A stretch of 32,000 nucleotides of DNA from Candidatus Electrothrix sp. GW3-4 (GTDB lineage Bacteria; Desulfobacterota; Desulfobulbia; Desulfobulbales; Desulfobulbaceae). Below the pieces are notes generated by a model. The model saw only the letters and a list, made by a program, of their open reading frames with translations. It was not told the origin of the DNA and ran no database searches. The DNA is taken from assembly GCF_037902255.1 (NCBI RefSeq), contig NZ_CP147990.1, positions 1,920,001-1,952,000 of the forward strand, given 5' to 3'. A program made the position numbers and the translations under genes. Below are positions 571 through 30,540 of this stretch, one piece after another; within the stretch, counting starts at the first letter, position 1; every line of letters starts with the position of its first letter.

Positions 571-1566
571 ATGAAGATCAAAGCAGGTGTGATGTCCTTC
601 CTTTGCATGGCTCTTTTGGGCGCAGCAGGTGCTGTTGCCGCAGAGGAACCCATCCAACCCATTGCCCCGGTCAAGGAGATTAATTTGGCTAAGGCCGAAC
701 TGGGCAAGAAGCTCTTTTTTGATCCCCGCCTCTCCAAGTCAGGTTTTATCTCCTGTAACTCCTGTCATAATCTGAGCATGGGCGGCTCAGACAACCTCAA
801 GACCTCTATCGGCCATAACTGGCAGCAAGGCCCGATTAACGCACCCACTGTCCTGAACTCCAGCTTGAATTTTGTCCAATTCTGGGATGGCCGGGCAGAG
901 AGCCTGAAGGATCAGGCCGGAGGCCCCATTGCCAATCCCGGTGAAATGGCCCTGACCCATGCCCTGGCAAAAGGCATCCTGGAATCCATCCCTGGTTACG
1001 TCACCGAATTCACCCAGGTCTTTGGCGACAATACCGTCAATATTGATCGGGTCACCGATGCCATTGCTGAGTTTGAAAAGACCCTGGTTACCCCGAATTC
1101 CCGCTTTGACCAATGGCTCATGGGCGATAAGGAGGCCCTGACCGCTGATGAACAGGCTGGCTATAAACTGTTTAAGGACTCCGGCTGTATCTCCTGTCAT
1201 TACGGGGCAGGCATGGGAGGGACTTCTTTTCAAAAGATGGGGGTCATGGAAGAGTATAAGGCCAAGAGTCCGGCCGAGGGCCGCAAGGCTGTGACCGGTA
1301 AGGATGAAGATCGCTTTGCCTTTAAGGTCCCGACCCTGCGTAATGTGGAGCTGACCTACCCGTACTTCCATGACGGCGAGGCCGAGACCCTGACCGAGGC
1401 GGTTGACATCATGGGCCGCCTGCAGCTGGGTGCCAAATTCACCGATGAGCAGAACGCCCAGATCGTGGCCTTTCTCAAAAGTCTGACCGGTGAGCAGCCG
1501 TCATTTACTCTGCCCATCCTGCCGCCTTCCAGCGACAAGACGCCGCCACCCAAACCCTTTGAGTAA
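571..1566 (+). CDS. ccp: di-haem cytochrome c peroxidase (CCP/MauG family), copy 1
   Basis: Signal peptide, two haem c motifs (CNSCHN and CISCHYG), and the conserved FWDGRA, GPIANPGEM and PTLRNV blocks of bacterial CCPs. Confidence 0.9.
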   Translation: MKIKAGVMSFLCMALLGAAGAVAAEEPIQPIAPVKEINLAKAELGKKLFFDPRLSKSGFISCNSCHNLSMGGSDNLKTSIGHNWQQGPINAPTVLNSSLNFVQFWDGRAESLKDQAGGPIANPGEMALTHALAKGILESIPGYVTEFTQVFGDNTVNIDRVTDAIAEFEKTLVTPNSRFDQWLMGDKEALTADEQAGYKLFKDSGCISCHYGAGMGGTSFQKMGVMEEYKAKSPAEGRKAVTGKDEDRFAFKVPTLRNVELTYPYFHDGEAETLTEAVDIMGRLQLGAKFTDEQNAQIVAFLKSLTGEQPSFTLPILPPSSDKTPPPKPFE

Positions 1567-1656
1567 GATCCGGTCTTTTATGCCAACAAGTTGATCTATC
1601 TTTCGTCTCCCCGGCTCTGCCGGGGATTCTTTGAGGTATTTTTTGAGACACTTTCT

Positions 1657-2652
1657 ATGAAAAAAACAGTCGGCGTCATTCTCTTGACCTATGGGCTCTC
1701 CTTGGCTGTCAGTACAGCCGGAGCCGCCCAGAAACCGGTAGAACCCATTGCCCCGGCCACGGGCATTAACCAAGCAAAGGCTGAATTGGGCAAGAAGCTC
1801 TTTTTTGATCCCCGCCTCTCCAAATCAGGCTTTATCTCCTGCAATTCCTGCCATAACCTGAGCAGGGGCGGCACCGATAATCTGAAGACCTCCATTGGCC
1901 ATAACTGGCAGCAGGGCCCTATTAACTCGCCCACAGTCCTCAATTCCAGTATGAATTTTGTCCAGTTCTGGGATGGCCGGGCCAAGGACCTCCAGGATCA
2001 GGCGGGCGGACCCATTGCCAATCCCGGCGAGATGGCCTTTAGCCATGATCTGGCCGAAGAGGTGCTGCAATCCATCCCTGGCTACGTTGCCGAGTTCAAG
2101 AACGTCTTTGGCAAGGACAGGATCGCTATTGACCAGGTGACTGATGCCCTTGCCGAGTTTGAAAAGACCCTGGTTACCCCGAATTCCCGCTTTGATCAGT
2201 GGCTCAAGGGTGATAAAGAGGCCTTAACAGCAGAGGAACAGGCAGGCTATACCCTCTTTCAGGAGTCTGGTTGTATCTCCTGTCATTATGGGATGGCCAT
2301 GGGCGGGGGCAGCTTTTACAAGATGGGCATGGTGGAGGAGTTCAAGGCCAACAGCCCGTCCCAGGGGCGCAAGGACGTGACAGGGAAGGAAGAGCATTAT
2401 TTCATGTTCAAGGTCCCGACCCTGCGCAATGTGGAGCTGACCTCTCCCTATTTTCATGACGGATCGGCTCGGACCCTGTCCCAGGCCGTGGACACCATGG
2501 CCCGCCATCAGTTGGGCAAGAAGTTCACCCAGGAAGAAAATGGGCAACTGGTGGCCTTCCTGAAAACTTTGACAGGTGAGCAGCCCTCGTTTCCCCTGCC
2601 CATCCTGCCCCCTTCCAGCGAGACCACCCCACGTCCCAAGCCGTTTGAATAG
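1657..2652 (+). CDS. ccp: di-haem cytochrome c peroxidase, copy 2 (tandem paralogue)
   Basis: Same motifs as copy 1 (CNSCHN, CISCHYG). I chose the start at ATG 1657 (MKKTVGVILL signal peptide) rather than the track's TTG-like 1591 extension. Confidence 0.9.
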   Translation: MKKTVGVILLTYGLSLAVSTAGAAQKPVEPIAPATGINQAKAELGKKLFFDPRLSKSGFISCNSCHNLSRGGTDNLKTSIGHNWQQGPINSPTVLNSSMNFVQFWDGRAKDLQDQAGGPIANPGEMAFSHDLAEEVLQSIPGYVAEFKNVFGKDRIAIDQVTDALAEFEKTLVTPNSRFDQWLKGDKEALTAEEQAGYTLFQESGCISCHYGMAMGGGSFYKMGMVEEFKANSPSQGRKDVTGKEEHYFMFKVPTLRNVELTSPYFHDGSARTLSQAVDTMARHQLGKKFTQEENGQLVAFLKTLTGEQPSFPLPILPPSSETTPRPKPFE

Positions 2653-10237: not shown

Positions 10238-11081
10238 CAAGGGACGATCCTGTTTTATCCAATGATTTTCTCTGCTGGCTTGACCTATTTTTCGTCCATA
10301 AGGACTCGCTGCGGGAGTTGACAAGAAGTATTTCTTTTAAAAGGGCCTCCAGCTTGACCTCATCCCGCATAGGCGTAATATCCCCCCCCTGGACAACGGA
10401 AATCTCCTGGGTCTCCTCAGAAACAACAATCACCACGGCATCGGTTTCTTCAGAAAGGCCCAGGGCGGCCCGGTGTCGCGTCCCATAACGTTTATCGATA
10501 TCAGGATTTTTCGACAAAGGAAGCAGGCAGGCTGCTGAATGAATTCTTCCCTTTTTGATCACAACAGCACCATCATGCATGGGCGACATAGGGAAAAAAA
10601 GAGCCACCAAGAGTTCCTGTAGCAATTTGGCATCAAGAATAAAACCGGTTTCGATATATTCGGCTAAACCGGTGTCTCGTTCTATGATAATCAAGGCCCC
10701 TATACGGCGGCGGGCCATGTATACGGCCGCAGAAATGATTTCCGTGAGATCATGGGCTGCCATTTTCTGGCTTTTCAGAAAAGGCGTTCTGCCCATTTCT
10801 GTCAACACTCGACGGATATCATCCTGAAAGATAACAACCAGAATCAAAAGAATAGAACTGAGAAGATAGCGGAGCAGGAGCTGCAGGGTCAGCAGATCCA
10901 TCTGAATAGAGACAAAATAGATAAAACTGACCACCAAAATCCCGATCAGCATCTGCACCGCCCGAGTCCCCCGAATCAAAAGAATCGTCCGATAAATAAC
11001 AAAGGAAACGATCAAGATATCGATGAGATCCTGCCAGCGGACCGAGCGGGGAAAATTAAAGGTATGGAGAAAGTCAGGCAT
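10230..11081 (-). CDS. cdaA: diadenylate cyclase CdaA (c-di-AMP synthase)
   Basis: Three N-terminal TM helices plus a DisA_N domain with DGAVVI and GTRHRAALG motifs. Confidence 0.93.
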   Translation of the reverse strand: MPDFLHTFNFPRSVRWQDLIDILIVSFVIYRTILLIRGTRAVQMLIGILVVSFIYFVSIQMDLLTLQLLLRYLLSSILLILVVIFQDDIRRVLTEMGRTPFLKSQKMAAHDLTEIISAAVYMARRRIGALIIIERDTGLAEYIETGFILDAKLLQELLVALFFPMSPMHDGAVVIKKGRIHSAACLLPLSKNPDIDKRYGTRHRAALGLSEETDAVVIVVSEETQEISVVQGGDITPMRDEVKLEALLKEILLVNSRSESLWTKNRSSQQRKSLDKTGSSLDD

Positions 11082-11429: not shown

Positions 11430-12323
11430 ATGCTCAGACCACCATATAGCGAATATCAACGTCTCCATGTCTACTATCTGGATCAACGCAACCTGCCACC
11501 GATTACAGATCCAGACCTGATAGGTATCTGGATTGAAGATGAGACAGCCATCCTCTTTTTTCATCAGGCCAAAGAGGCGTTCATCCAGGCCCTTTGCCAG
11601 CAAACCGGGGCCTCTATTATCTATCAGGCAGATCTTGATTATCAGGACTGGGAGGCAGGGGTGAAGATCACCTCATTCGCCACCAAGACCTTACGGATTC
11701 GTCCAGTCTGGGAAGAACCAGCAGCGCAAGACAAGGTGAGCAAGGAAAAAACAGAGATTCTGCTCGATCCCAGTGTTATTTTTGGCTCTGGTTTTCACGC
11801 CACGACCCGGCTCTGCCTGGAGACCCTGGAGCTCCTCCTTCTGGAGTCTGGAATGCAGATCAACTCTGTTTTGGATCTGGGAACAGGGACAGGGCTGCTT
11901 GCCATAGCAGCTGCCAAACTCGGGGTAGAGCGGGTAACAGCCCTGGACAATAATCCCCTGGCAGTGGAGGTGGCCCAGGCCAATGCCGAACGCAATAACT
12001 GCGCTGATATCGTGAAGGTCCGGCCCTTCGATCTGATGGAGGGATTACCAGATATGGACCATGATCTGGTCATCACCAACCTCTACAAGGGACTCCTGAT
12101 CCGTCTCTTTCAGGATCAAAATTTCTGGCTTCCAGGGGCCTACATGGTTTCCGGCTTTATTCCTGGCATGGAGGCAGATCTGCTTGCAGCCCTACCAGCC
12201 AACAGGATTCAGATGCTCCATCGGGGCAATGCCGAACAATGGCGGTTATGGCTCCTCCAATATGCAGAGGAAAACCGGAACAACCAGAGAGGGAGCATAA
12301 CAGAGCTTCAAGTACACGAATGA
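11430..12323 (+). CDS. prmA: ribosomal protein L11 methyltransferase
   Basis: FGSGFHATTRLCLE and SAM-binding VLDLGTGTGLLAIAAAKLG motifs. Confidence 0.9.
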   Translation: MLRPPYSEYQRLHVYYLDQRNLPPITDPDLIGIWIEDETAILFFHQAKEAFIQALCQQTGASIIYQADLDYQDWEAGVKITSFATKTLRIRPVWEEPAAQDKVSKEKTEILLDPSVIFGSGFHATTRLCLETLELLLLESGMQINSVLDLGTGTGLLAIAAAKLGVERVTALDNNPLAVEVAQANAERNNCADIVKVRPFDLMEGLPDMDHDLVITNLYKGLLIRLFQDQNFWLPGAYMVSGFIPGMEADLLAALPANRIQMLHRGNAEQWRLWLLQYAEENRNNQRGSITELQVHE

Positions 12324-12751
12324 TTGCTGAACTCACCTCACTCCCCCTTACTGACCTCCTGGAGGCACTGGGCCTCATCTCCCTGCTCACCTTTCTCGGT
12401 AGCCTGCTTATCCTTCCCTGGTTGATCCTGAGCATGCAAGCGGATTATTTCATTCGTCACCACCAGGAGGTCGTTGCACGGCATCAACGACATCCGGTCC
12501 TTGCTATCATCATCTTCTTTCTCCGTAACAGCATCGGGTTCTGTGTAATGGTCGCCGGAATGGCCATGCTGGTGCTCCCTGGTCAGGGGATCTTGACCAT
12601 GGTGATCGGGTTTTCCCTCATGGATTTTCCCAAAAAACATCATCTCACCGACCGAATCATGGCAAATCGCAAAATCCAGCACTCGCTCAATTGGATCCGC
12701 CATAAGGGGGGCAAAGAGGACCTTATCTTTTTGCCGCCTGCTGCCCCATGA
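12320..12751 (+). CDS. small membrane protein with PGPGW-like motif
   Basis: ATG 12320 overlaps the prmA stop (ATGA), and its stop overlaps the mutY ATG (ATGA), indicating translational coupling. It has hydrophobic helices and LPGQGILTMVIGF, reminiscent of the PGPGW transmembrane family. The track's 12239 start would overlap prmA by 85 nt. Confidence 0.55.
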   Translation: MIAELTSLPLTDLLEALGLISLLTFLGSLLILPWLILSMQADYFIRHHQEVVARHQRHPVLAIIIFFLRNSIGFCVMVAGMAMLVLPGQGILTMVIGFSLMDFPKKHHLTDRIMANRKIQHSLNWIRHKGGKEDLIFLPPAAP

Positions 12752-13815
12752 AGAGCACCCTGATCCGCCAGGCCCTCCTTGCCTGGTTTGCGGAAAACCA
12801 ACGCCCCCTCCCCTGGCGCAGGGAATACCGACCCTACCATGTCTGGATCGCAGAGATCATGGGTCAGCAGACCCAAATGGACCGGGCGGTGACCTATTTC
12901 AACAACTGGATCAGGCAATTCCCGAACATCCCGACTCTTGCTGCGGCCTCAGAACAGGAGGTCGTCAAGGCCTGGGAAGGGCTGGGTTATTATAGCCGGG
13001 TGCGAAACATCCGCAAAACTGCTGACATCCTGGTCCAGGAATACGGGGCCAAGCTCCCCGATAATGAGCCCCAGCTCCTTGCCCTGCCTGGTATCGGGCC
13101 ATACACCGCAGCCGCCATCCTCTCCATTGCCTTTAATCGTCCGGTTCCCCTGTTGGATGCCAATGTGGAACGGATCCTCTGCCGACTTGACGATATCGAC
13201 CAGCCGGTCAAGCAGGTAGCGACCCGAAAGCTGCTCCTGCAACGCTGCTCTGACCTGCTGCCTGAAGATGATGCCCGACATTTCAACCAGGCCCTGATGG
13301 AATTCGGGGCCTTGATCTGCACCCCAAAAAGACCTGTCTGTTCGACCTGCCCACTCCAGCAATGGTGTCGCGCCTATGCAGGGGACATCGTTGACCTCCG
13401 TCCGGTCCCAGGGAAAAAGGAAAAGCGGATTGATATCTTCATGGCCTGCGGCATTATTGAGCACGGCGACCGCTTCTATATCCAGCAGCGCCGGGAAAAG
13501 GATGTCTGGGGTGGTTTATGGGAATTCCCTGGTGGACGTCTCAAAGAAGACGAACCCCCTGAGCAGGCTGCAATACGTGAGATCCTTGAGGAAACAGAAT
13601 TCCAGGTGACAGATCTACGCCCCTTTGCCACAGCGATCCACCATTACACAAAGTATCGCGTCACCTTAGAGGCCTTTTTCTGTCGCCTGGCAAGCAACCA
13701 GTCAATGACCCCGATCCTCCATGCCGCAAGTCAGTACAAGTGGGTGAGGCTCAATGAATTAAGCAGCTTTGCCTTCCCAGCTGGCCATCGCCAGTTGGTT
13801 GAAAAGATGGGCTAA
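12748..13815 (+). CDS. mutY: A/G-specific adenine DNA glycosylase
   Basis: HhH-GPD domain (LPGIGPYTAAAI), Fe-S cluster loop CTPKRPVCSTCPLQQWC, and a C-terminal NUDIX-like domain (GLWEFPGG). Confidence 0.92.
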   Translation: MKSTLIRQALLAWFAENQRPLPWRREYRPYHVWIAEIMGQQTQMDRAVTYFNNWIRQFPNIPTLAAASEQEVVKAWEGLGYYSRVRNIRKTADILVQEYGAKLPDNEPQLLALPGIGPYTAAAILSIAFNRPVPLLDANVERILCRLDDIDQPVKQVATRKLLLQRCSDLLPEDDARHFNQALMEFGALICTPKRPVCSTCPLQQWCRAYAGDIVDLRPVPGKKEKRIDIFMACGIIEHGDRFYIQQRREKDVWGGLWEFPGGRLKEDEPPEQAAIREILEETEFQVTDLRPFATAIHHYTKYRVTLEAFFCRLASNQSMTPILHAASQYKWVRLNELSSFAFPAGHRQLVEKMG

Positions 13816-14159: not shown

Positions 14160-14350
14160 CCTTCTTCCCTATTACCTATTATAGTGGACCCAAATCTTCA
14201 TGTACTTGATGCCGCTGTCGCTATCTCAGCCGCTCTCTGGAGCCTGAACTTACGTTATTCAGGAACAACTCTATTCAGTTTGAAATATCTCCCCCTTGAT
14301 TTCAAGGTTGACAACCTGAGAAGAAATCAGGTAGACATTGACCTACGTTT

Positions 14351-14437
14351 CACTGGGGGTGCTTTGGACAAAGCTGAGAGAGGTCTGTGCCTCAACCCTT
14401 GGAACCTGATACGGTTCATACCGTCGTAGGGATAGTG
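14351..14437 (+). promoter_or_regulatory. TPP (thiamine pyrophosphate) riboswitch, THI-box
   Basis: CACTGGGGGTGC...GCTGAGAGA...ACCCTTGGAACCTGATACGGTTCATACCGTCGTAGGGATAGTG matches the THI element consensus (GGGGUGC, CUGAGA, ACCCUUxGAACCUGAUxxGGxUAAUxCCxGCGUAGGGA). P1 closes as CACT/AGTG. It lies upstream of thiS. Confidence 0.9.
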
Positions 14438-14600
14438 ATGAAAGCGTCGCAGAAGTTCCTTTTTGCCCTTCTTTCTTCCTCTCCCCGCATTTTTTGTTTT
14501 TTGTGATTTTGTAACTCTCTCCGGTTAGTTTCCCCCTTATCACCACCTGGGAGATAAAGGGCAGACACGCAGGTTTGCCCCTACTATTACTAATATTTCC

Positions 14601-19173: not shown

Positions 19174-20097
19174 ATGGCACGAAAACTCATCAGCTTCGAC
19201 TGGGCCATGAAAAAGCTCCTGCGGAGCAAGGCCAATTTCGACATCCTGGAAGGTTTTCTCAGCGAACTCCTGAAAGAGGATATCCATATTCTGGAAATCC
19301 TTGAGAGCGAAGGCAATCAGGAAGAAGAGCAGGACAAGTTCAACAGGGTGGACCTGAAGGTCAGGAATCAGAACAATGAATTAATGATTATTGAGGTACA
19401 GTACGACCGCGAGCTTGATTACCTCCAGCGTATTCTCTTCGGCACTTCCAAAGTCATCACAGAGCATCTTCAGGAAGGCGATCCCTATTCCGCTGTGGTC
19501 AAAGTAATCTCCGTAAATATCCTTTACTTTGATCTCGGTCAGGGAACAGATTATGTCTATCACGGCTCAACTTCTTTTCAAGGTATTCACAACCAGGATA
19601 TTCTTCAACTGTCAGAAAAGCAGCAGGCCCTTTATCAGAAGCAGGAAGTGTATCAGATTTTTCCAGAATATTACCTTATCAAGGTGAATAGTTTCAACGA
19701 TATTGCCAAGGACAGCTTGGATGAATGGATATATTTCCTCAAAAATGAGGAGATCAAAGAGGAATTTCAGGCTAGAGGTCTAAGGAAAGCCAAACACGAG
19801 CTTGACATCATGAAACTTCCTGATAATGAGCGACGAGCCTACGAACGGCATCGGGAGAATCTGCATTACCGGGCAAGCATGTTTGAAACCTCCTATACTG
19901 CCGCTGTGTTGGAAGGAAGAATTGAGGGAAAGAAAGAAGGATTAAAAGAAGGGGAACAACGGGGAGAAAAGAAAAAAGCCCTGCAAGTCGCACGGAAGCT
20001 TCTTCAAGCTGGCACATTGGATATCAAAACCATTGCAGATATGACAGAACTGACAGAGGAAGAAGTCAGAGCTTTGCAGACAGAGAATGACGATTAA
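19174..20097 (+). mobile_element. Rpn-family recombination-promoting nuclease / PD-(D/E)XK putative transposase (Transposase_31-like)
   Basis: N-terminal FDWAMKKLL..ILEGFLSELL and DLKVRN...IIEVQ (PD-(D/E)XK core), with a C-terminal charged helical tail, as in the TIGR01784/RpnA-like family (motif recall). Confidence 0.8.
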
Positions 20098-23279: not shown

Positions 23280-23309
23280 TTGGACATCCTTCCAAATTTA
23301 TTATACAAT
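23280..23309 (+). promoter_or_regulatory. candidate sigma70 promoter for the AAA-FGE operon
   Basis: TTGGAC (23280-23285), 18-nt spacer, TACAAT (23304-23309). This would give a leader of about 190 nt. Confidence 0.3.
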
Positions 23310-23499: not shown

Positions 23500-24804
23500 A
23501 TGAGCAGCGATGGGCCCCGCCCTCAAAAAATAAGGGTTGGCCAACGTATAAAACTCAATCGATGTCAATCCTGGGATGAGAGCTTTCATATCTTTGATGA
23601 AGAGTCCGCCTTTGCCATAGAAATGGCCTTGGCTACCGGGCGACCTCTCCTGGTCCGAGGAGAACCGGGCAGCGGCAAAAGCCAGTTAGCCCAGGCAGCG
23701 GCCCAGGAACTGGATCGTTATTTTATCGCGGAAAGCATCACTGTCGCTTCTGAAGGGCGCGACCTCCTTTGGAAATATGACCCCGTGGCTCGTCTGAGTG
23801 AGGCCCAGACCCGGGCTGCGGAATCAGCCCTGAGGCAACAGCGAAGAATTCTCCGCCGGGAAGGACAAGAGATGCAGGCACTGGCTGCTGAAGTGGCTTC
23901 CACGCAACAATCCAACACTTCCCAAAAAAAGAAAATCGCCCGGCATAGAAAAAAGAAATCATCCCGCCAGAGGAGCAAAAAAAATTACCAGTTCAACAGG
24001 AGTACTGTTCCCAAAACGATCACTCGGATTGAGATTCCTGCGGTAAAAGACCAGGAGTACGGCCTGCGTCCGGGTAATTTTATCAGTCCCGGTGTCCTAT
24101 GGTGGGTTTTTGATTGTGTCTCTGCCTATAAGCAGTACAAAAGATGCCGCTATCCTTTTTATAAACCAGGATTTCTCTATGAGGAAATCAACGAGCTTGA
24201 GACTGCCGATCGCGGTTTTGTCCTGCTGATAGATGAAATTGACAAAGCCGATCCCTCCCTGCCCAACACCCTTCTTGAAGTATTAGGAAATAGTGGCTTT
24301 CACGTGCCCATGCTTGATGAGTCTGTCGGCATGGCGCCAGGGATAAAGAAACCGCTGGTGATTATTACAACCAACGGGGAAGAAGAGCTCCCTGCCGCCT
24401 TTGTCCGACGCTGCCTGGTTCTCAATCTCCATGTTGATGACAAGCAATACCTCCGTACCTGGTGGAAACAGCAGGTGGAAACAGCAGCGCTGCCCTCGAC
24501 CTCAGAGGATTTGTCTCAGGAAAAAATGCTTATTCTTTGGTTGATCCAACGGGCGGAGGTTCATTTTGAAGGTATCTTCACTGATAAAGTCAAGATAAAG
24601 GCCGCCCAATTACTCGTCAAAGATCGTCGGGCAGCACAGCGATTTGGTGGGGTGAAACCAGGGCAGGCAGAATTTCTCGATCTCCTCAGGGCCTTGCGGG
24701 ATATGCCTGTGCCCAAGTATTCAGGAGAAGCCTTGGAACAATACCAGTTGGCCTTATTGAAAAAAATCAGTCGCTATGCACTGGCAAAGTCGGTTGCAGA
24801 CTGA
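23500..24804 (+). CDS. MoxR/AAA_5-like AAA+ ATPase with a K/R/Q-rich low-complexity insertion
   Basis: Walker A GEPGSGKS (23659-23682), Walker B VLLIDEIDKAD, sensor-1 VIITTN, FVRRC arginine. About 70 aa of QQRRILRRE...QKKKIARHRKKKSSRQRSKK lie between Walker A and B (about 23800-24000). Confidence 0.8.
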   Translation: MSSDGPRPQKIRVGQRIKLNRCQSWDESFHIFDEESAFAIEMALATGRPLLVRGEPGSGKSQLAQAAAQELDRYFIAESITVASEGRDLLWKYDPVARLSEAQTRAAESALRQQRRILRREGQEMQALAAEVASTQQSNTSQKKKIARHRKKKSSRQRSKKNYQFNRSTVPKTITRIEIPAVKDQEYGLRPGNFISPGVLWWVFDCVSAYKQYKRCRYPFYKPGFLYEEINELETADRGFVLLIDEIDKADPSLPNTLLEVLGNSGFHVPMLDESVGMAPGIKKPLVIITTNGEEELPAAFVRRCLVLNLHVDDKQYLRTWWKQQVETAALPSTSEDLSQEKMLILWLIQRAEVHFEGIFTDKVKIKAAQLLVKDRRAAQRFGGVKPGQAEFLDLLRALRDMPVPKYSGEALEQYQLALLKKISRYALAKSVAD

Positions 24805-24822
24805 GTTACGCCTGATTGCCCC

Positions 24823-27303
24823 ATGACGAGATTGAAGAGACAAGTCAGCAGGGCTGATATCCTTCGCTTGCTTGCGGTTTCGCGAACAGCTTCTGCTGAT
24901 GCTGCGGCAAAATTAGCCGGTTATATTCCTGAGCAAGGAAGCAACCAGTCTCAAGGGAAAAAGATTACTCGTTCACATATAGCCTCTCATGCACGGTCCC
25001 ATCGGGCCCAGCTTTCTTCCCTTAAGCTGGCTGAAAAAAAAGAAATCAGCCGCAACCTGCCTCTGGAGGCATTCTGGTATCTCTCAGAAAGAAAGGGGCT
25101 CAAAAAAACACTCCATCACTTGGCTGACCCGCAAGGACAGGCCACCTCAGAGGAAAGAAGGAGTATCCTGGCCGGAGCACTCCATAAGGTCAGGCCCCTG
25201 AGTGCCGAGGAACTCTCTGTAACGGAATTTACCCCCTGTCCTGGAGCCCCCTTGCCTGCTTGCCAACATACCGTTGCCAATCCACCACAGACTCAGGTGC
25301 AAAAACAAGCTCCCTTTGAGCCAGATATAGAAAGCCTTGTCACCTCAACCTCTGAATTCATTGCTCTTCATTGCCAGAAAAGTAAACAAACAAGGGAAAC
25401 TCCCTGCAAAACAAGAGCTGAAAAAAAGAGGACGCTCCGTTTTCAACGCCGTCTGCGTCGTCTGCTCGGTTTGCTGTCAGTAGCCACGTATATTGAACCT
25501 TCTTTACTACAAGAAGTTGTTCGTCTCATCCCCTCTTCTCTCCCCGATATTGCCACAGAGACAGCCCTTCAATGGCATCCAGATATTGAGCGGGACAGCA
25601 AAAACCATCTTGAGCTCCGGCCTGAAAAAAAAAGCGTTTATCACCAGATTTTTGCCCAGGAAACATCTCCACTCCAGGCCGAGATGCTGGGGTTATTGCG
25701 CCAGCGCGATGCAACGAGTTCCCCGTTTCTTTTTGCCCTGGAACTCCTTCCGGTTTTGCCTCTTCTTCACTCTACCACTCTGCAGAAACAGATTACTGTA
25801 TGGCTGGAGGCATTTATATTGCGCTTTGTCCGTACTTGGTTTGAGCGCCAAGAGGACAGGACTCTCATTAAGCAGGCTGAGCAACTCCTTGATCTCATGG
25901 AAAGGCTGCCCAAAGAACACAAAAGGCCATTGACAGCACGTTCCTTTCTCTACGGCATCGTGCATCGGAACGCCCTGCGGACCGGTGAAACCCTCCCTGC
26001 GGAATATAATCCAGAAGCAGTTATTCAGACAGTCCAGAAGTTGATGTCACCGGTCCGCTATCAGGTCCTGCAACAGGGAGAACGGTTTTTTCTCTATCCA
26101 AGCGATGAAATAGCCTTACTCCAGCTACCAGGAAGCCCTCTTGTTGAACTTGAATTGTCTGTGGATTGTCTCCTGTTGTATAAGGGGGGGATGGCCACCC
26201 TGCCTGTCCGGCCAGGAGAGTTGGTGTATGACTGCACAGGTCAGGAGGAAGCTTTCTTTGTACAAACCCCAACAGAACAGCTCGTTTTCAACAGCTGTTT
26301 TCGTCCTTCTTGGGCGCAGGCCATAGGCCGCCACACCAAGGGGTTCTTTGTCGATGCCCCTTGGCTTGGCAAAACATATCGTTTAACCTGGAAAAACAGC
26401 ACAGGTGAGGGGCCAGGAAGGTGGATTGGTAACGGGGATCTGCAAACAGATCAGCATGGTCTCTTTGTTGATCTCAAAATTAAGAAGCAGGTGATACAAC
26501 GGTTCCGGAGGATCATCCCTGATTGGTTTATGATGGGCTCTCCGGAGGATGAACCGGAACGGGAAAGCTGGGGCAAGGAATCATTACATGAGGTCATTTT
26601 GACCAAGGGATTCTGGGTTGCTGACACCGCAGTGACCCAAAGGCTATGGCAGGCGGTTGTCGGTGATAATCCCAGTCGTTTCCAAGGAGTTGACCACCCT
26701 GTCGAACAGGTCAGTTATCACGATGCACTCTTTTTTCTCCAGCGCCTGAATGCGCTTATCCCAGGAGTTAGGGCCCGTTTACTGACAGAGGCGGAGTGGG
26801 AATACTGTTGCCGAGCAGGTACTGCTACCCCTTTTTCTTTTGGGACCTGCATTACTCCTGATCAGGTGAACTATAATGGTCAATACCCTTATCACACAGG
26901 GTCCATGGGAAGAAACAGGCAACAATCTGTTACCGTCAGATCATTCCCCTGCAATGCCTGGGGATTATTTGAAATGCATGGCAATGTCTGGGAGTGGTGT
27001 CAGGATTACTGGCAGGAAGATCTCTTTTCTGAAGAACCCCAACGGGATCCGCAAGGACCAGAAAACGGTGAGTTCCAAGTCGTACGAGGCGGATCTTGGT
27101 TTTTGGCCGGTCGCGGAGTCCGTTCAGCCGTTCGCGGCAAGTTTGCCCCGCATTTCCGCAACTCGCGTATCGGTTTTCGCATTGCTCTGACCCCGAAAGA
27201 AGAGAGAGACAAGGGGCAGAAACCTTCTCTTCATGCGCCCAAAGCAGCACCCCGACCAAGCCACCTTGAGGAGATGCTGAGCTGGTTCAGGGCCAAGTCA
27301 TAA
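24823..27303 (+). CDS. 826-aa protein: unrecognised N-terminal region of about 560 aa plus a C-terminal FGE-sulfatase (SUMF1/EgtB/PvdO-like) domain
   Basis: The C-terminal domain (about 26500-27190) carries MGSPEDEPER, HEVILTKGFWVADTAVTQ, PVEQVSYHDA, LLTEAEWEYCCRAGT, NAWGLFEMHGNVWEWCQD, VVRGGSW and IGFRIAL. It begins 18 nt after the ATPase gene. Confidence 0.8.
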   Translation: MTRLKRQVSRADILRLLAVSRTASADAAAKLAGYIPEQGSNQSQGKKITRSHIASHARSHRAQLSSLKLAEKKEISRNLPLEAFWYLSERKGLKKTLHHLADPQGQATSEERRSILAGALHKVRPLSAEELSVTEFTPCPGAPLPACQHTVANPPQTQVQKQAPFEPDIESLVTSTSEFIALHCQKSKQTRETPCKTRAEKKRTLRFQRRLRRLLGLLSVATYIEPSLLQEVVRLIPSSLPDIATETALQWHPDIERDSKNHLELRPEKKSVYHQIFAQETSPLQAEMLGLLRQRDATSSPFLFALELLPVLPLLHSTTLQKQITVWLEAFILRFVRTWFERQEDRTLIKQAEQLLDLMERLPKEHKRPLTARSFLYGIVHRNALRTGETLPAEYNPEAVIQTVQKLMSPVRYQVLQQGERFFLYPSDEIALLQLPGSPLVELELSVDCLLLYKGGMATLPVRPGELVYDCTGQEEAFFVQTPTEQLVFNSCFRPSWAQAIGRHTKGFFVDAPWLGKTYRLTWKNSTGEGPGRWIGNGDLQTDQHGLFVDLKIKKQVIQRFRRIIPDWFMMGSPEDEPERESWGKESLHEVILTKGFWVADTAVTQRLWQAVVGDNPSRFQGVDHPVEQVSYHDALFFLQRLNALIPGVRARLLTEAEWEYCCRAGTATPFSFGTCITPDQVNYNGQYPYHTGSMGRNRQQSVTVRSFPCNAWGLFEMHGNVWEWCQDYWQEDLFSEEPQRDPQGPENGEFQVVRGGSWFLAGRGVRSAVRGKFAPHFRNSRIGFRIALTPKEERDKGQKPSLHAPKAAPRPSHLEEMLSWFRAKS

Positions 27304-27328
27304 TCCCCCACACCATTGCGGAACCACG

Positions 27329-28204
27329 ATGCAAGCGAAAGAGGAAGAAAAAAAGGTCGTCGATGAGGACTCAATGCCAACCACGGGGATGTGTTTTCGC
27401 AATCATCTTTCCCCACCTCAATTTCCCACCCCTTGGGCTGTGGATTGGGGGGAGGACAGGTACGGGCTGTGGATGAGTTTTGCCTTGAACCAGATCAGGC
27501 AAACCCTCCGCTGGATCAGACCAGGAACCTTTCTCATGGGGGCGACAAAGGACGAAAATGGACAACGGCCCTGGCTGGGCCGGGAAACACAACACAAGGT
27601 AACTCTGACCAAGGGGTTCTGGCTGGCTGACACCACGGTTACCCAGGAAATGTGGTACACTGTAATGCACCTTTCTCCAAGCGGCTTCAGAGGTGATCAG
27701 AACCCAGTTGAACGAATAAGCTGGCACGATGCCCAAATCTTTGTTCAGCGTCTCCAGCGACGTATACCAGGTCTTCATGCACGACTGCCCACAGAGGCGG
27801 AATGGGAATATGCCTGTCGAGCAGGGACAACTTCTCCCTTTTCCTTGGGGCCTGATATCTCCCCGGAACAGGTCAACTATAACGGCAGATACCCCTACCG
27901 CTCTCAAGAAAAAGGCCTTTTCCGCAAAAGGACCGTTATAGCAAAAAGTCTCCCTCGCAATAGCTGGGGATTATACGAAATGCATGGCAATGTCTGGGAG
28001 TGGTGTCAGGATTATTGGCAGCCCGACCTGGAAACACGGCCTTCAGTTAATCCGCAAGGAGCAAAGAGGGGAAACTACCGCTCAATACGCGGAGGCTCCT
28101 GGGTAAGTGACGCCTGTTTTATCCGTTCAGCCTGCCGCGACCGCTTTGCACCAGATTATTGCCTTGGCAGTGTGGGGGTGAGACTGGCAATAAATGCGGA
28201 GTAG
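27329..28204 (+). CDS. stand-alone FGE-sulfatase (SUMF1/EgtB/PvdO-like) domain protein
   Basis: RWIRPGTFLMGATKDE, HKVTLTKGFWLADTTVTQ, PVERISWHDA, LPTEAEWEYACRAGT, NSWGLYEMHGNVWEWCQD, IRGGSW, VGVRLAI. It starts 25 nt after the previous gene. Confidence 0.85.
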   Translation: MQAKEEEKKVVDEDSMPTTGMCFRNHLSPPQFPTPWAVDWGEDRYGLWMSFALNQIRQTLRWIRPGTFLMGATKDENGQRPWLGRETQHKVTLTKGFWLADTTVTQEMWYTVMHLSPSGFRGDQNPVERISWHDAQIFVQRLQRRIPGLHARLPTEAEWEYACRAGTTSPFSLGPDISPEQVNYNGRYPYRSQEKGLFRKRTVIAKSLPRNSWGLYEMHGNVWEWCQDYWQPDLETRPSVNPQGAKRGNYRSIRGGSWVSDACFIRSACRDRFAPDYCLGSVGVRLAINAE

Positions 28205-28260
28205 GAAAATCAGGACAATGCGTCGCTTATTGCCTCAAGAAAAAAGAGACGGATCCTAAA

Positions 28261-28671
28261 TTATGCGGCAGTATCATAGTAGCCGTAATAAGAAATTTTA
28301 CACTTACTCATATAGATACCGTTTCTCCCGCAGGAAGAGCAGCGAACCTTTTGAGATTTTTTTGGGGTAACAAAATTTGTACTCAGCAGGGTGCGCAGAA
28401 CAAGAGATTTCGGGTAGGCAGCATCCACCAATGCGGTAAAGACAAAGTCGTACATGGTTATCTTTTTTTGGCATTGACATCTGCATGCCTCCGACTCAAA
28501 AAAATACGCATTATTGCTCAATGTGCCGGAATAAACATCAAGCAGACGTTCTATCGCCTCGATATCAGACTGCTTTACCGGAGATATTCGTGATTCCTCT
28601 CCGTTGTCAACGAACCGTAACTCGCCGAACCCATCTTTTGTCATCGACTTGATTAAATAATAATAGCTCAT
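28261..28671 (-). CDS. hypothetical Cys-rich protein (possible zinc ribbon)
   Basis: I prefer the start at the internal ATG 28671 (MSYYYLIK), which has GGGAG 6 nt upstream. It contains CRCQC and CSSCGRNG. I recognise no family. It is convergent with the FGE-like gene. Confidence 0.4.
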   Translation of the reverse strand: MSYYYLIKSMTKDGFGELRFVDNGEESRISPVKQSDIEAIERLLDVYSGTLSNNAYFFESEACRCQCQKKITMYDFVFTALVDAAYPKSLVLRTLLSTNFVTPKKSQKVRCSSCGRNGIYMSKCKISYYGYYDTAA

Positions 28672-29227
28672 AATGCTCCCTTTTCGCTCTGGCCCTTTGT
28701 GCTTTTTGGAGATTCTGCCTTCTGCCCTTCTCAACTGACTTTTTTTATTCAGAAGAGCAAGGAATATACCGAGAAATAATCCCCACACCATCAAGAGAAG
28801 CTATCTTGTTCTTCTTTCGCAATAAATCAATATTCATTTTTAGCAGAATAACAACCTGCCACTCCTTATTTATCCGCACTTAACAGATATTTATTACATA
28901 GCCCATTTCTGCTATCGGGTATTTTTAACCCAATGGATCAAGGAGGATTACAACGACAGGAAGGGAGCATTTCACCATGCCAAAATGTATATTTTTTACA
29001 CAACCAACAAATACCTTCTGGGTAAAATACAAGGTAAAATGGAGGCCTCATGAGTCATGAGAAAAAAATTACAGGAAAAAACCACTCACATCTATAACAA
29101 AAAAATACAAAACCAAGAAGCTACCCTTTTTCTACAGCAAGATAGGAGGAGCCGTTAGAGACAGGTCATCCCTCTGATCAGTCACACCATATCGGGTAAA
29201 AAATATACACTTAAAGTACGAATAAAG

Positions 29228-29256
29228 TTGACAGGCAGCGCCAGGAAACGTATCGT
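29228..29256 (+). promoter_or_regulatory. candidate sigma70 promoter for the structured leader
   Basis: TTGACA (29228-29233), 17-nt spacer, TATCGT (29251-29256). Confidence 0.35.
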
Positions 29257-29286
29257 TAAAATATATATAAGGCGTGCTTATTAACG

Positions 29287-29398
29287 AGCAGGTGCCTTGC
29301 TTTCTGGATGAGCCGGAAAGCTGATAAAGCCACAGCCGCCGTGAGGCGGTGTCGGAAAGCCACGGATCTCCAATAAGGAGACCGCCGGGCTACCTGCT
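29287..29398 (+). promoter_or_regulatory. structured 5' leader; possible divergent cobalamin (B12) riboswitch
   Basis: The closing helix is AGCAGGTGCC (29287-29296) / GGC-T-ACCTGCT (29388-29398). GCCACAG is followed by the GNRA hairpin GCCGCC-GTGA-GGCGGT and then GGAAAGCC, mirroring the GCCACUG-hairpin-GGGAAGGC core I recall. AAGGAGACCGCCGGGC resembles the B12 box (..GGAGACCKGCC). The hairpin TCTCC-AATAA-GGAGA is also present. The GGUGnAAnUCC element is not evident. Confidence 0.4.
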
Positions 29399-29426
29399 TT
29401 TCCTTTCATATCAGGAGGCATAAGTT

Positions 29427-29651
29427 ATGCGTACCACGGAATCCGCACCCCACCTCGATTCAATCATTGCGACAGGACCTCTTCCTGCCCACGTAGACCT
29501 TTTTTTTCTCGCGCAAGAGAAATACCATCCGGCCCATTGCACACCCCTTTCTGACTCTGCACAGCAATCTTTAGCCCAAGAAACAGCCCTTGTTAACTCA
29601 CAACTTCAAGCGCAGTACCAATTGCATCCGAAATTTCTTCAATCATCTTAA
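29427..29651 (+). CDS. hypothetical 74-aa protein
   Basis: ATG is preceded by AGGAGG at 8-nt spacing. It is the first ORF after the structured leader. No recognisable motif. Confidence 0.4.
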   Translation: MRTTESAPHLDSIIATGPLPAHVDLFFLAQEKYHPAHCTPLSDSAQQSLAQETALVNSQLQAQYQLHPKFLQSS

Positions 29652-29720
29652 TCGAGCCAGGCTCTTTTAGTGATGAGCTATACCCTATTAAAGTCATGAA
29701 GAAACATTAAGGAGCAGATC

Positions 29721-30434
29721 ATGAAAACAGAAAAAGTATATTCAATTCATTTTGATTTTCGACAGAAAGAGCAGAAAAGGATACTTGAGTACATGCAGCA
29801 GAGAGGATATAAGCTGCTGGGATTTAAAGGCGCTGAAGGGGATGGACAGGTTGCAGGTATTCCTGTTTGGTTCTCTGTTCCATATATCAGAATGGCTGGT
29901 GAGGTGAGGAATGTCTATCAGTCGCTCTACAAGGTATATTATGTAGACTCGTCAACAGCGTCAGACAAGGCAATTCGCATGACAGCCCTGTCCGAGGTCG
30001 TGGAGCTTGGTTCCAAAGTGACCCTGCAGAAAGATGGCCACTTTACAGTTGAACCAGGTGGCCCTGAAAACGCCATACTCTTTATCAACAACAGAGCTGT
30101 TGATAGCGGAACCATTACCGTTGGCCTGGCGTCCCTTATTAACGGAAGCTACGCGCCGTTTTGCGCCTTCAAGGCTGTTCCGCAGAAGCCACTACATATG
30201 GCGCCCAACGATAAAATTTGCTTATTTGCAGTTCCTACAGTGACAAGAGCAGGCTCAGTTGCAGCCCAAGCTGTTACGGAGGGGGCATTATTCGAGCTTG
30301 ATGCGCCGCATAACTGTTTACACCTGAAAATGAAACAGGAAGGAGATGGGTTCAACCCGGTATCCTGGGGTATGCCAGTTAGAGAGGTGCATCCAGGAGA
30401 CCCACTGACCCAGTTAATGGATTGCCATCATTAA
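29721..30434 (+). CDS. hypothetical 237-aa protein
   Basis: AAGGAG lies 7 nt upstream of the ATG. The reading frame is clean and is followed by a strong terminator. I recognise no family motif. Confidence 0.6.
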   Translation: MKTEKVYSIHFDFRQKEQKRILEYMQQRGYKLLGFKGAEGDGQVAGIPVWFSVPYIRMAGEVRNVYQSLYKVYYVDSSTASDKAIRMTALSEVVELGSKVTLQKDGHFTVEPGGPENAILFINNRAVDSGTITVGLASLINGSYAPFCAFKAVPQKPLHMAPNDKICLFAVPTVTRAGSVAAQAVTEGALFELDAPHNCLHLKMKQEGDGFNPVSWGMPVREVHPGDPLTQLMDCHH

Positions 30435-30498
30435 CAGACACCCACTCTCGGCCTCCCGGGACTGACTGAGAAGACCTTTATACAGACAAAGGCAGCTG

Positions 30499-30540
30499 AT
30501 CGGGTTTTTCCTGTACAAGGAAAAACCCGATTTATTTTTT
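30499..30540 (+). terminator. strong Rho-independent terminator
   Basis: 13-bp stem ATCGGGTTTTTCC / GGAAAAACCCGAT, loop TGTACAA, then TTTATTTTTT. Confidence 0.85.

Follow-up and report, generated by a model that had tools for sequence, protein, structure and literature searches.

Kaur et al. (2020; PMC7159879) describe MoxR–vWA ternary systems, in which, for the VMAP class, a third component, a MoxR ATPase, and a vWA protein follow one another in strict order. The third components carry variable peptidase or TIR heads, Trypco1 or Trypco2 lies beside the trypsin-like heads, and the systems are frequently linked to diversity-generating retroelements (DGRs). A later paper (Kaur et al., 2021; PMC8195603) describes a helical linker, "vWA-L," that joins the vWA domain to the effector, reports that in some systems the helical linker and effector form a gene separate from the vWA, and gives FGS domains a new interpretation, as lectin-like modules that sense invaders inside the cell. 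Here, we analyze a trio of genes within a 32-kb stretch (the window) of the 4.6-Mb genome of Candidatus Electrothrix sp. GW3-4, which is a cable bacterium. The g1 gene (23500 to 24804, + strand) encodes a 434-aa MoxR-class AAA+ ATPase (Pfam AAA_5) with all catalytic motifs intact; g2 (24823 to 27303, + strand) encodes an 826-aa long FGS protein that corresponds to the "vWA component" of ternary systems but has no vWA domain; and g3 (27329 to 28204, + strand) encodes a 291-aa stand-alone FGS protein that is paralogous to the C-terminal domain of g2 (51% identity). All three genes lie on one strand with gaps of 18 nucleotides (nt) between g1 and g2 and 25 nt between g2 and g3, an operon-like layout that agrees with a first-pass annotation of the window. 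On balance, we favor the reading that the trio is a functional, reduced, effector-less derivative of a MoxR–vWA ternary conflict system that is specific to cable bacteria and possibly exapted. The first-pass annotation had proposed a candidate undescribed system with a link to NTPase-centered conflict systems that use FGS domains. The link is upheld, since homologous cassettes, gene order, and the ties to FGS domains and DGRs match the accounts of Kaur et al.; the system itself is not undescribed, since its core is the downstream part of the ternary systems that those two papers describe computationally.

Relatives of the trio were gathered by a scan of a genome collection followed by phmmer classification. 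A core in which an ATPase gene is followed by a long FGS gene, and in some cases by a short FGS gene, is kept in ~25 loci from at least six phyla, which answers in the affirmative the question of co-occurrence that the first-pass annotation had raised for a gene-neighborhood survey. In Oceanospirillum and Methylomonas, which were reached through the neighborhoods of insert-less ATPase homologues, the cassette has five genes, which encode Trypco2, a trypsin-like protein of ~490 aa, the ATPase, a long protein of ~1000 aa, and a short protein of ~270 to 300 aa. The core is also found in Verrucomicrobia, Nitrosomonas, Holophagae, Thiothrix, Contendobacter, Accumulibacter, Isosphaeraceae, Planctomycetaceae, Polyangiaceae, Lysobacterales, a Lamellibrachia symbiont, and Alteromonadales, and the phylum-level spread of the full cassette takes in Gammaproteobacteria, Betaproteobacteria, Verrucomicrobia, Planctomycetes, Acidobacteria, and Myxococcota. 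The long gene adjoins the ATPase gene co-linearly in all relatives, and the short FGS gene comes after the long one in most of them. The g1 and g2 proteins are 41 to 48% and 31 to 37% identical, respectively, to proteins from cassettes that have TIR, trypsin, Trypco, or TCAD9 third components.

In every non-cable locus examined, a gene for a 460- to 770-aa protein abuts the ATPase gene upstream. An identifiable effector head was found on 15 of the 18 upstream proteins that were scanned. The heads recorded among these 18 were TIR (six), trypsin-like (four), and SEFIR (three), with single occurrences of TCAD9 ("ternary complex associated domain 9"), PNP/UDP phosphorylase, metallophosphatase, and DUF676 esterase. 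Trypco1 or Trypco2 lies beside the trypsin-headed gene in four loci (L001, L002, L010, and L089), and other cassette neighbors include Trypco1, SLATT, Fic, and cyclic nucleotide monophosphate-binding proteins. The upstream proteins share a C-terminal domain; two independent members are matched, at 1e-14 and 1e-16, by a hidden Markov model (HMM) made from 16 such proteins.

The long proteins of the non-cable loci contain a ~190-aa segment, limited to these proteins, with a Rossmann-like pattern in which an Asp ends presumed strands 1 and 4. Comparison of this segment by hhalign with an alignment of genuine VWA_CoxE proteins that we constructed gave an E value of 1.1e-4 and a probability of 56% over 148 columns, with both Asp residues aligned. 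An HMM of this vWA-like segment (A3) matches the non-cable long proteins at 1e-48 to 1e-68. The closest non-cable relatives, which are matched at 1e-48 to 1e-53, keep both the vWA-like segment and the upstream gene, and in one of them the cassette includes Trypco1 and a trypsin-like gene. The same HMM has no match in g2 or in the long proteins of two other cable-bacterial loci (L005 and L008). In four loci from Streptomyces, Rhodocyclaceae, and Methylibium (L023, L028, L031, and L041), a related ATPase gene is followed by a gene for a stand-alone vWA-like homologue of 320 to 360 aa that has no FGS domain; these pairs may be a simpler two-gene relative of the family.

The first ~560 residues of g2 were described in the first-pass annotation as unrecognized, helical, and then beta-rich, and this description fits our results. 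Residues 1 to 560 have no Pfam match, and word-indexed searches with this region, both as a single sequence and as a five-sequence profile, returned cable-bacterial proteins only; the gammaproteobacterial relatives came instead from neighborhood lookups of ATPase homologues. In an AlphaFold2 (AF2) model, helices occupy residues 194 to 405, with a predicted local distance difference test (pLDDT) score of 80 to 92, and strands occupy residues 410 to 570. The protein begins with N-terminal helices (24823 to 24927, + strand; residues 1 to 35) that carry the motif VSRADILRLLA...LAGY. These helices are ancestral and retained: an HMM made only from non-cable N termini matches g2 at residues 7 to 37 with an E value of 1.3e-3 among ~9000 open reading frames (ORFs) and matches the Electronema orthologue of g2 at 4.6e-7. 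A low-complexity, mostly disordered basic linker follows (24928 to 25452, + strand; residues 36 to 210; net charge, +12; pLDDT mostly <50), and it stands in place of the deleted vWA-like domain. Because the N-terminal motif is kept and residues 211 to 826 of g2 align with residues 326 to 954 of a 1001-aa Methylomonas protein (37% identity), the vWA-like domain was deleted inside g2 rather than split off.

The alpha-helical middle domain of g2 (25453 to 26037, + strand; residues 211 to 405; AF2 helices with pLDDT of 80 to 92) is homologous to a region of the non-cable long proteins. It starts at about residue 320 to 350 in the non-cable proteins and at residue 139 to 224 in the cable proteins, and a phmmer search of the full database with this domain returned only 75 cluster representatives. 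Based on its position, as a confidently predicted helical region that precedes the FGS domain, the middle domain probably corresponds to the "vWA-L" linker of Kaur et al. (2021). The beta-rich region (26038 to 26502, + strand; residues 406 to 560; AF2 strands at 411 to 571, with pLDDT of 65 to 84) is conserved with the gammaproteobacterial homologues and leads into the FGS domain (26503 to 27192, + strand; Pfam PF03781 at residues 569 to 788; E value, 1e-39), which has a noncatalytic fold of the formylglycine-generating enzyme (FGE)-sulfatase/C-type-lectin kind. The C-terminal tail (27193 to 27303, + strand) ends in a short amphipathic basic helix, LEEMLSWFRAKS, at 27265 to 27300 (residues 815 to 826; AF2 helix at 814 to 824). 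Other cable long proteins, as well as that of Methylomonas, end in a helix of this kind; in the long FGS proteins of the window, L096, L005, L093, and L002, the amphipathic basic helices at the end include LEEMLSWFRAKS, LRNILNRLRGAS, and IRDRWHQLRKKSRK. The helix persists while the tail around it evolves almost neutrally, and it could be a membrane-targeting or docking helix.

The cable-bacterial set consisted of eight loci from two genera (the window, L005 to L008, and L093 to L096). All eight have the ATPase and long FGS genes and lack a third-component gene, and the short FGS gene is present in all of them except that of Ca. Electrothrix gigas. The HMM for the third-component C-terminal domain has no match in the window or in L005 to L008, and the later cable loci have no candidate by annotation. 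The first-pass annotation had recognized neither a vWA partner nor an effector, and indeed the third-component HMM has no match in the window and the vWA-like HMM has none in g2. As judged from these sequence comparisons, the missing vWA domain and effector are lineage-specific losses in cable bacteria and not a failure of recognition. The trio travels as a unit, and its neighborhoods are unrelated between cable lineages. Within Electrothrix the locus is syntenic between species, fully so between the window and Ca. E. communis, and has diverged as fast as cutA and cobD have. Searches recovered homologues bearing the ATPase insert described below from essentially every named genome of Electrothrix and Electronema. 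The cable form is vertically inherited across these two genera. At the Ca. E. gigas locus (L094), which has the ATPase and long FGS genes, a tblastn search with g3 matches the long gene only, and two ParE-like toxin pairs lie downstream.

The cable form also differs from its relatives in the ATPase itself. As the first-pass annotation had it, g1 is a MoxR/AAA_5-class ATPase with the motifs GEPGSGKS, LLIDEIDKAD, and VIITTN. In an alignment of g1 with 17 homologues, Walker A K60, Walker B D245 and E246, sensor-1 N292, and the arginine-finger residues R303 and R304 are invariant in all 18 sequences. The Pfam AAA_5 match (E value, 3e-11) is split into two stretches that flank an insert (23806 to 24060, + strand; residues ~103 to 187), which is cable specific and is predicted to consist of a long helix followed by a disordered polybasic loop. 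The first-pass annotation had noted a K/R/Q-rich insert of ~70 residues here; the insert is real, and its length is ~85 aa rather than 70. It lies between the conserved DPVARLxxAQ and PGVLWW blocks and is missing from the insert-less homologues in the alignment. Its core motif, [RK]KKxxAR[HY][RK]KKK (KKKIARHRKKK in g1), is kept in all Electrothrix and Electronema orthologues, and residues 139 to 187 have a net charge of +13. A second, smaller insert at residues ~317 to 345 is common to the cable proteins and three uncultured relatives.

The AF2 model of g1 has a pLDDT of 79.6 and a predicted template modeling score of 0.74. In it, the insert forms a long helix (residues 95 to 139) followed by a disordered loop (139 to 185; pLDDT <50). 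Short strands at 91 to 93 and 195 to 197 interrupt helix 2 and bracket the insert, and a hairpin precedes sensor 1. Within the established topology of AAA+ proteins, this is where the MoxR/MCM/dynein clade has its helix-2-insert hairpin. Judging from the order of secondary-structure elements, the insert apparently sits at the tip of the g1 helix-2-insert hairpin in this model. The top Foldseek matches of g1 in the PDB are NorQ, CbbQ, and the MoxR protein CHU_0153 (E values of 7e-9 to 6e-8 for NorQ and CbbQ), and the nearest PDB sequences are midasin AAA modules.

Ratios of nonsynonymous to synonymous substitution rates (dN/dS) were calculated between the window and Ca. E. communis. The g1 value is 0.11 overall and 0.20 in the insert. 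The g2 value is 0.21 overall, with 0.32 in the linker (residues 36 to 210), 0.06 in the FGS domain, and 0.94 in the C-terminal tail, and the g3 value is 0.14, with 0.20 at residues 251 to 291. For the neighboring genes thiC and cobD, the ratios are 0.05 and 0.14. Because all three genes are under purifying selection, we consider them to be genes and not chance ORFs. Identity to strain YB6 is 65% for g1, 65% for cobD, and 63% for cutA. These comparisons point to vertical inheritance under constraint, and to neither decay nor arms-race evolution. A segment of the g2 FGS domain that is putatively part of the ligand site, GGSWFLxGRGVRSAVRGKF, is nearly invariant across cable bacteria and is the equivalent of the DGR variable region in relatives; the g3 equivalent differs between species.

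According to the reading that we favor, the ancestral cassette would have encoded a third component with a variable head, a MoxR ATPase, a long protein, and a short FGS protein, and some copies would have been diversified by DGRs. The ancestral long protein would have run from an N-terminal helix through a vWA-like domain, a helical linker, and a beta region to a final FGS domain. The ancestor shared by Electrothrix and Electronema would then have lost the third-component gene and, by deletion within the long protein, the vWA-like domain, and its ATPase would have gained a helical stalk and a polybasic loop. In the resulting form, a MoxR hexamer would use ATP to remodel or cycle complexes of the two lectin-like FGS proteins, and g2 would be tethered to the ATPase via its retained N-terminal helices. 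The FGS proteins would bind a conserved, probably endogenous ligand without triggering a suicide effector, and the polybasic insert would add a contact to a polyanion (nucleic acid, polyphosphate, or an acidic protein) near the pore. Because there is no enzymatic effector, the output would presumably be binding, sequestration, or remodeling. The trio would thus be a device for binding and remodeling that has been domesticated or repurposed.

Several points weigh against this reading. What the FGS domains bind, what the polybasic insert does, and how g1 contacts g2 are all inferred. For the third component of the relatives, which could be of the iSTAND, iSTAND2, TERNS3, or VMAP class, Pfam gave no VMAP-C match and a PDB profile search came back empty. 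Pfam scans and a PDB profile search for vWA in the relatives failed or were marginal, and we call the segment "vWA-like, moderately supported" because these searches gave no confirmation. The AF2 model of g2 is poor overall (pLDDT, 59.8), and Foldseek found no fold match in the PDB for the middle region. With no short FGS gene at the Ca. E. gigas locus, the trio is not strictly invariant. Finally, our view covered only 32 kb of the genome, and a DGR or a gene for a third component or a vWA protein could lie elsewhere.

The last of these points is the starting place for an alternative in which the trio is still an immune sensor module and the effector third component, the vWA protein, or both act in trans from elsewhere in the 4.6-Mb genome. 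The iSTAND2 and TERNS3 systems are a precedent for this arrangement, since according to Kaur et al. (2021) the linker-effector and the vWA are on separate genes and FGS domains are proposed as invader sensors. However, the trio or duo is partnerless in eight cable loci from two genera, in unrelated neighborhoods, while the order VMAP, MoxR, vWA is strictly kept in the account of Kaur et al. for the VMAP class and the third component abuts the ATPase in every non-cable locus examined. The retention of the pre-vWA N-terminal motif in g2 indicates an internal deletion and not a split, and the housekeeping-like rate and invariant g2 site are unlike those of fast-evolving conflict genes. We regard a partner in trans as unlikely, although it is an alternative to be reckoned with.

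A further possibility is that the ternary immune system was domesticated in the cable-bacterial ancestor into a core housekeeping machine that is lineage defining and has no part in defense. The trio would then be a MoxR chaperone with a polybasic pore-side insert and two FGS adaptors that recognize a conserved endogenous target, such as a glycosylated or polyanionic envelope component, or that act in an assembly step of the conductive fiber or a fiber cofactor. We consider this, too, an unlikely account, with roughly one chance in a handful of being correct.

The trio, as a reduced form, might instead be a decaying and nonfunctional remnant of a defense system. In favor of this, it no longer has an effector gene, a vWA domain, or a DGR, g2 residues 36 to 210 are of low complexity, the g2 tail has a dN/dS of 0.94, and Ca. 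E. gigas lacks g3. However, the ORFs are uninterrupted in every named Electrothrix or Electronema genome that was seen, domain dN/dS values are 0.06 to 0.21, the value for the insert is 0.20, and the catalytic residues of the ATPase are invariant. Decay is therefore very improbable in our view.

Genome annotations label these genes as encoding "formylglycine-generating enzyme family protein," and it might be supposed that g2 and g3 are true FGEs, or oxidases like EgtB, OvoA, or PvdO, which would act in the maturation of a sulfatase or a metabolite, assisted by the ATPase. The PF03781 matches are strong (for g3, residues 62 to 287 with an E value of 6e-41; both proteins are above the gathering score), and human and bacterial FGE structures are among the PDB sequence matches. 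Catalytic FGE has two Cu(I)-binding cysteines, C336 and C341 in the human enzyme. In an alignment with the human enzyme, g2 lacks Cys at both positions, and g3 has Ser at the C336 position and a single nearby Cys that is unconserved among orthologues. The C336 position is S, N, A, D, or C in orthologues, depending on the species, the C341 position is I, V, or A, and the two catalytic cysteines do not occur together in any orthologue of any lineage. The first-pass annotation had read the Cys pair as missing from both proteins, and the alignments with human FGE and with orthologues confirm this. Its remark that no sulfatase is nearby also holds: there is none among the scanned window ORFs or in the syntenic Ca. 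E. communis annotation, and linkage is not conserved across the cable loci, since a sulfatase lies near the trio in one of eight. That one is in Ca. Electronema halotolerans (L093, 80 to 1723), where GYF/AIM24 and VanZ genes separate the trio from a PF00884 sulfatase gene located 1.6 kb upstream; the presence of this sulfatase gene is probably coincidental, because this is the sole cable locus with a sulfatase nearby. In NCBIfam, g2 and g3 score far under every equivalog cutoff (77 to 90 versus 500 for PvdO and 39 to 59 versus 360 for EgtB), and in the Pfam scan they lack the DinB-type iron domain of EgtB and OvoA. From this sequence evidence, we conclude that g2 and g3 are not formylglycine-generating enzymes in the enzymatic sense, that the enzymatic account has next to no likelihood, and that the genome labels are misleading.

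Genuine DGR targets are present among the relatives of g2 and g3. In L013 and L014, from Contendobacter and Accumulibacter, one template repeat lies between the FGS genes and variable regions lie in both of them; the template and variable repeats are at 10475 to 10604, 12246 to 12378, and 13217 to 13349 in L013 and at 13613 to 13742, 14451 to 14580, and 15415 to 15542 in L014. Mismatches fall at template adenines in 13 of 14 to 20 of 22 cases, and L024 has a degraded version of the same arrangement. The best PDB sequence match of g3 is the DGR variable protein TvpA (2y3c; E value, 1.3e-20), yet it is scarcely credible that g2 and g3 are themselves DGR targets, since the script that finds the repeats in L013 and L014 finds no template/variable repeat in the window, there is no reverse transcriptase among the scanned window ORFs (several ORFs being unscanned) or in the Ca. 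E. communis annotation, and the variable-region equivalents are constrained, as the nearly invariant g2 segment and the dN/dS of g3 residues 251 to 291 indicate. A 71-nt stretch is 90% identical between g2 (26945 to 27015) and g3 (27951 to 28021), whose domains share only ~51% identity at the amino acid level, which suggests that the paralogues have undergone local gene conversion or that the motif WGLxEMHGNVWEWCQDYWQ is strongly constrained at the codon level.

Upstream of the trio, 530 nt of noncoding DNA separate thiC from g1. This gap contains a candidate sigma-70-type promoter at 23281 to 23309 (+ strand; TGGACA-17-TACAAT, 10 of 12 consensus matches), which we take as weak evidence only, because shuffled sequence yields no fewer such sites than this region. 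The first-pass annotation had placed the trio in an AT-richer accessory stretch. That placement is unsupported, because the G+C content of the trio (0.49 to 0.54) equals the window average and the AT-rich part lies downstream, at ~28000 to 30500. Scanned ORFs elsewhere in the window encode cytochrome c peroxidases, GlmM, MutY, SelO, and the products of thi genes. Two tandem paralogues of a di-heme cytochrome c peroxidase (CCP_MauG) are at 571 to 2652 (+ strand). An ordinary thiamine pyrophosphate riboswitch (RF00059, 79 bits) lies at 14345 to 14450 (+ strand), 5' of thiS-thiG-thiH, and a gene resembling Rpn-family PD-(D/E)XK (PDDEXK_2) nucleases/transposases is within the thiamine cluster at 19174 to 20097 (+ strand), with a counterpart in Ca. 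E. communis (L096, 3420 to 4367). Downstream of the trio, a cyclic di-GMP-I riboswitch (RF01051, 54 bits) at 29319 to 29397 (+ strand) precedes by ~320 nt an ORF at 29721 to 30434. This ORF encodes a conserved 237-aa protein without an assigned function (84% identity in Ca. E. communis and 60% in strain YB6), for which a PDB sequence search gave no matches, and it may be a cyclic di-GMP-controlled gene specific to Electrothrix.

With regard to named defense systems, PADLOC version 2 gave no system match for the trio and returned only Walker-A-level matches, for example, to mad8 at 4e-5; in line with the expectation of the first-pass annotation, the trio is not a named defense system. Full Methylomonas and Thiothrix cassettes are matched by PADLOC only via their effector heads. 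Two candidate matches of the ATPase, NCBIfam MadB_ATPase (57 bits versus a 475-bit cutoff) and PADLOC mad8 (a stretch that covers only Walker A), were rejected as generic AAA similarity. Our literature search found no paper that ties cable bacteria to these genes and no experimental work on ternary systems, and the supplement of Kaur et al. (2020) gives an organism list only and does not name relatives of the trio. Because PADLOC version 2 has no model for the parent class and our search found no paper on the cable genes, we regard the cable form as a new variant of a published, computationally defined class.

Cable bacteria are obligately multicellular. Kaur et al. report that ternary systems are statistically associated with multicellular bacteria, and these systems have been proposed as the basis of apoptosis-like immunity in such organisms. 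The cable trio has been stripped of the death effector, the vWA adaptor, and diversification, and yet it is strongly constrained across the whole family. This makes it a candidate case of an immune module repurposed in an obligately multicellular bacterium. It is also a natural "minimal core," an ATPase and two FGS proteins, for probing the MoxR–FGS interaction alone.

Compared with the systems that it most resembles, the trio differs from each in a definite way. From FGE (SUMF1), with which g2 and g3 share a fold, PF03781, and an alignment to the human enzyme of ~165 residues, they differ in having neither the copper-binding Cys pair nor a conserved sulfatase partner. The DGR variable proteins of the TvpA type include the best PDB sequence match of g3, and relatives of g2 and g3 are genuine DGR targets, whereas neither a template repeat nor a reverse transcriptase was found in the window, and the C-terminal site is not hypervariable. 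NorQ–NorD and CbbQ–CbbO are maturation/activation factors (chaperones) for enzyme complexes, in which NorD and CbbO grip the client via a vWA/MIDAS domain. They offer the nearest solved folds to g1, and, as in the trio, the gene for a single-ring MoxR ATPase adjoins one for a large adaptor; in contrast, g2 has no vWA domain and ends in a lectin-like FGS domain, and the window has no nitric oxide reductase or Rubisco context. The closest likeness is to the MoxR–vWA ternary systems, which share with the trio a MoxR-class ATPase, a long protein with a probable helical linker and a C-terminal FGS domain, and an association with multicellular hosts; all three genes have homologues in cassettes with the order third component, MoxR, vWA-FGS, and in some cases a further FGS gene. 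A stand-alone short FGS gene such as g3 is not described in the passages of those papers that we consulted. The cable form is without a third component, a vWA domain, or a DGR and has an additional polybasic insert in its ATPase, and whereas the ternary systems are rapidly evolving and patchy, the cable form evolves at a housekeeping rate, is vertically inherited, and is near-universal in one family.

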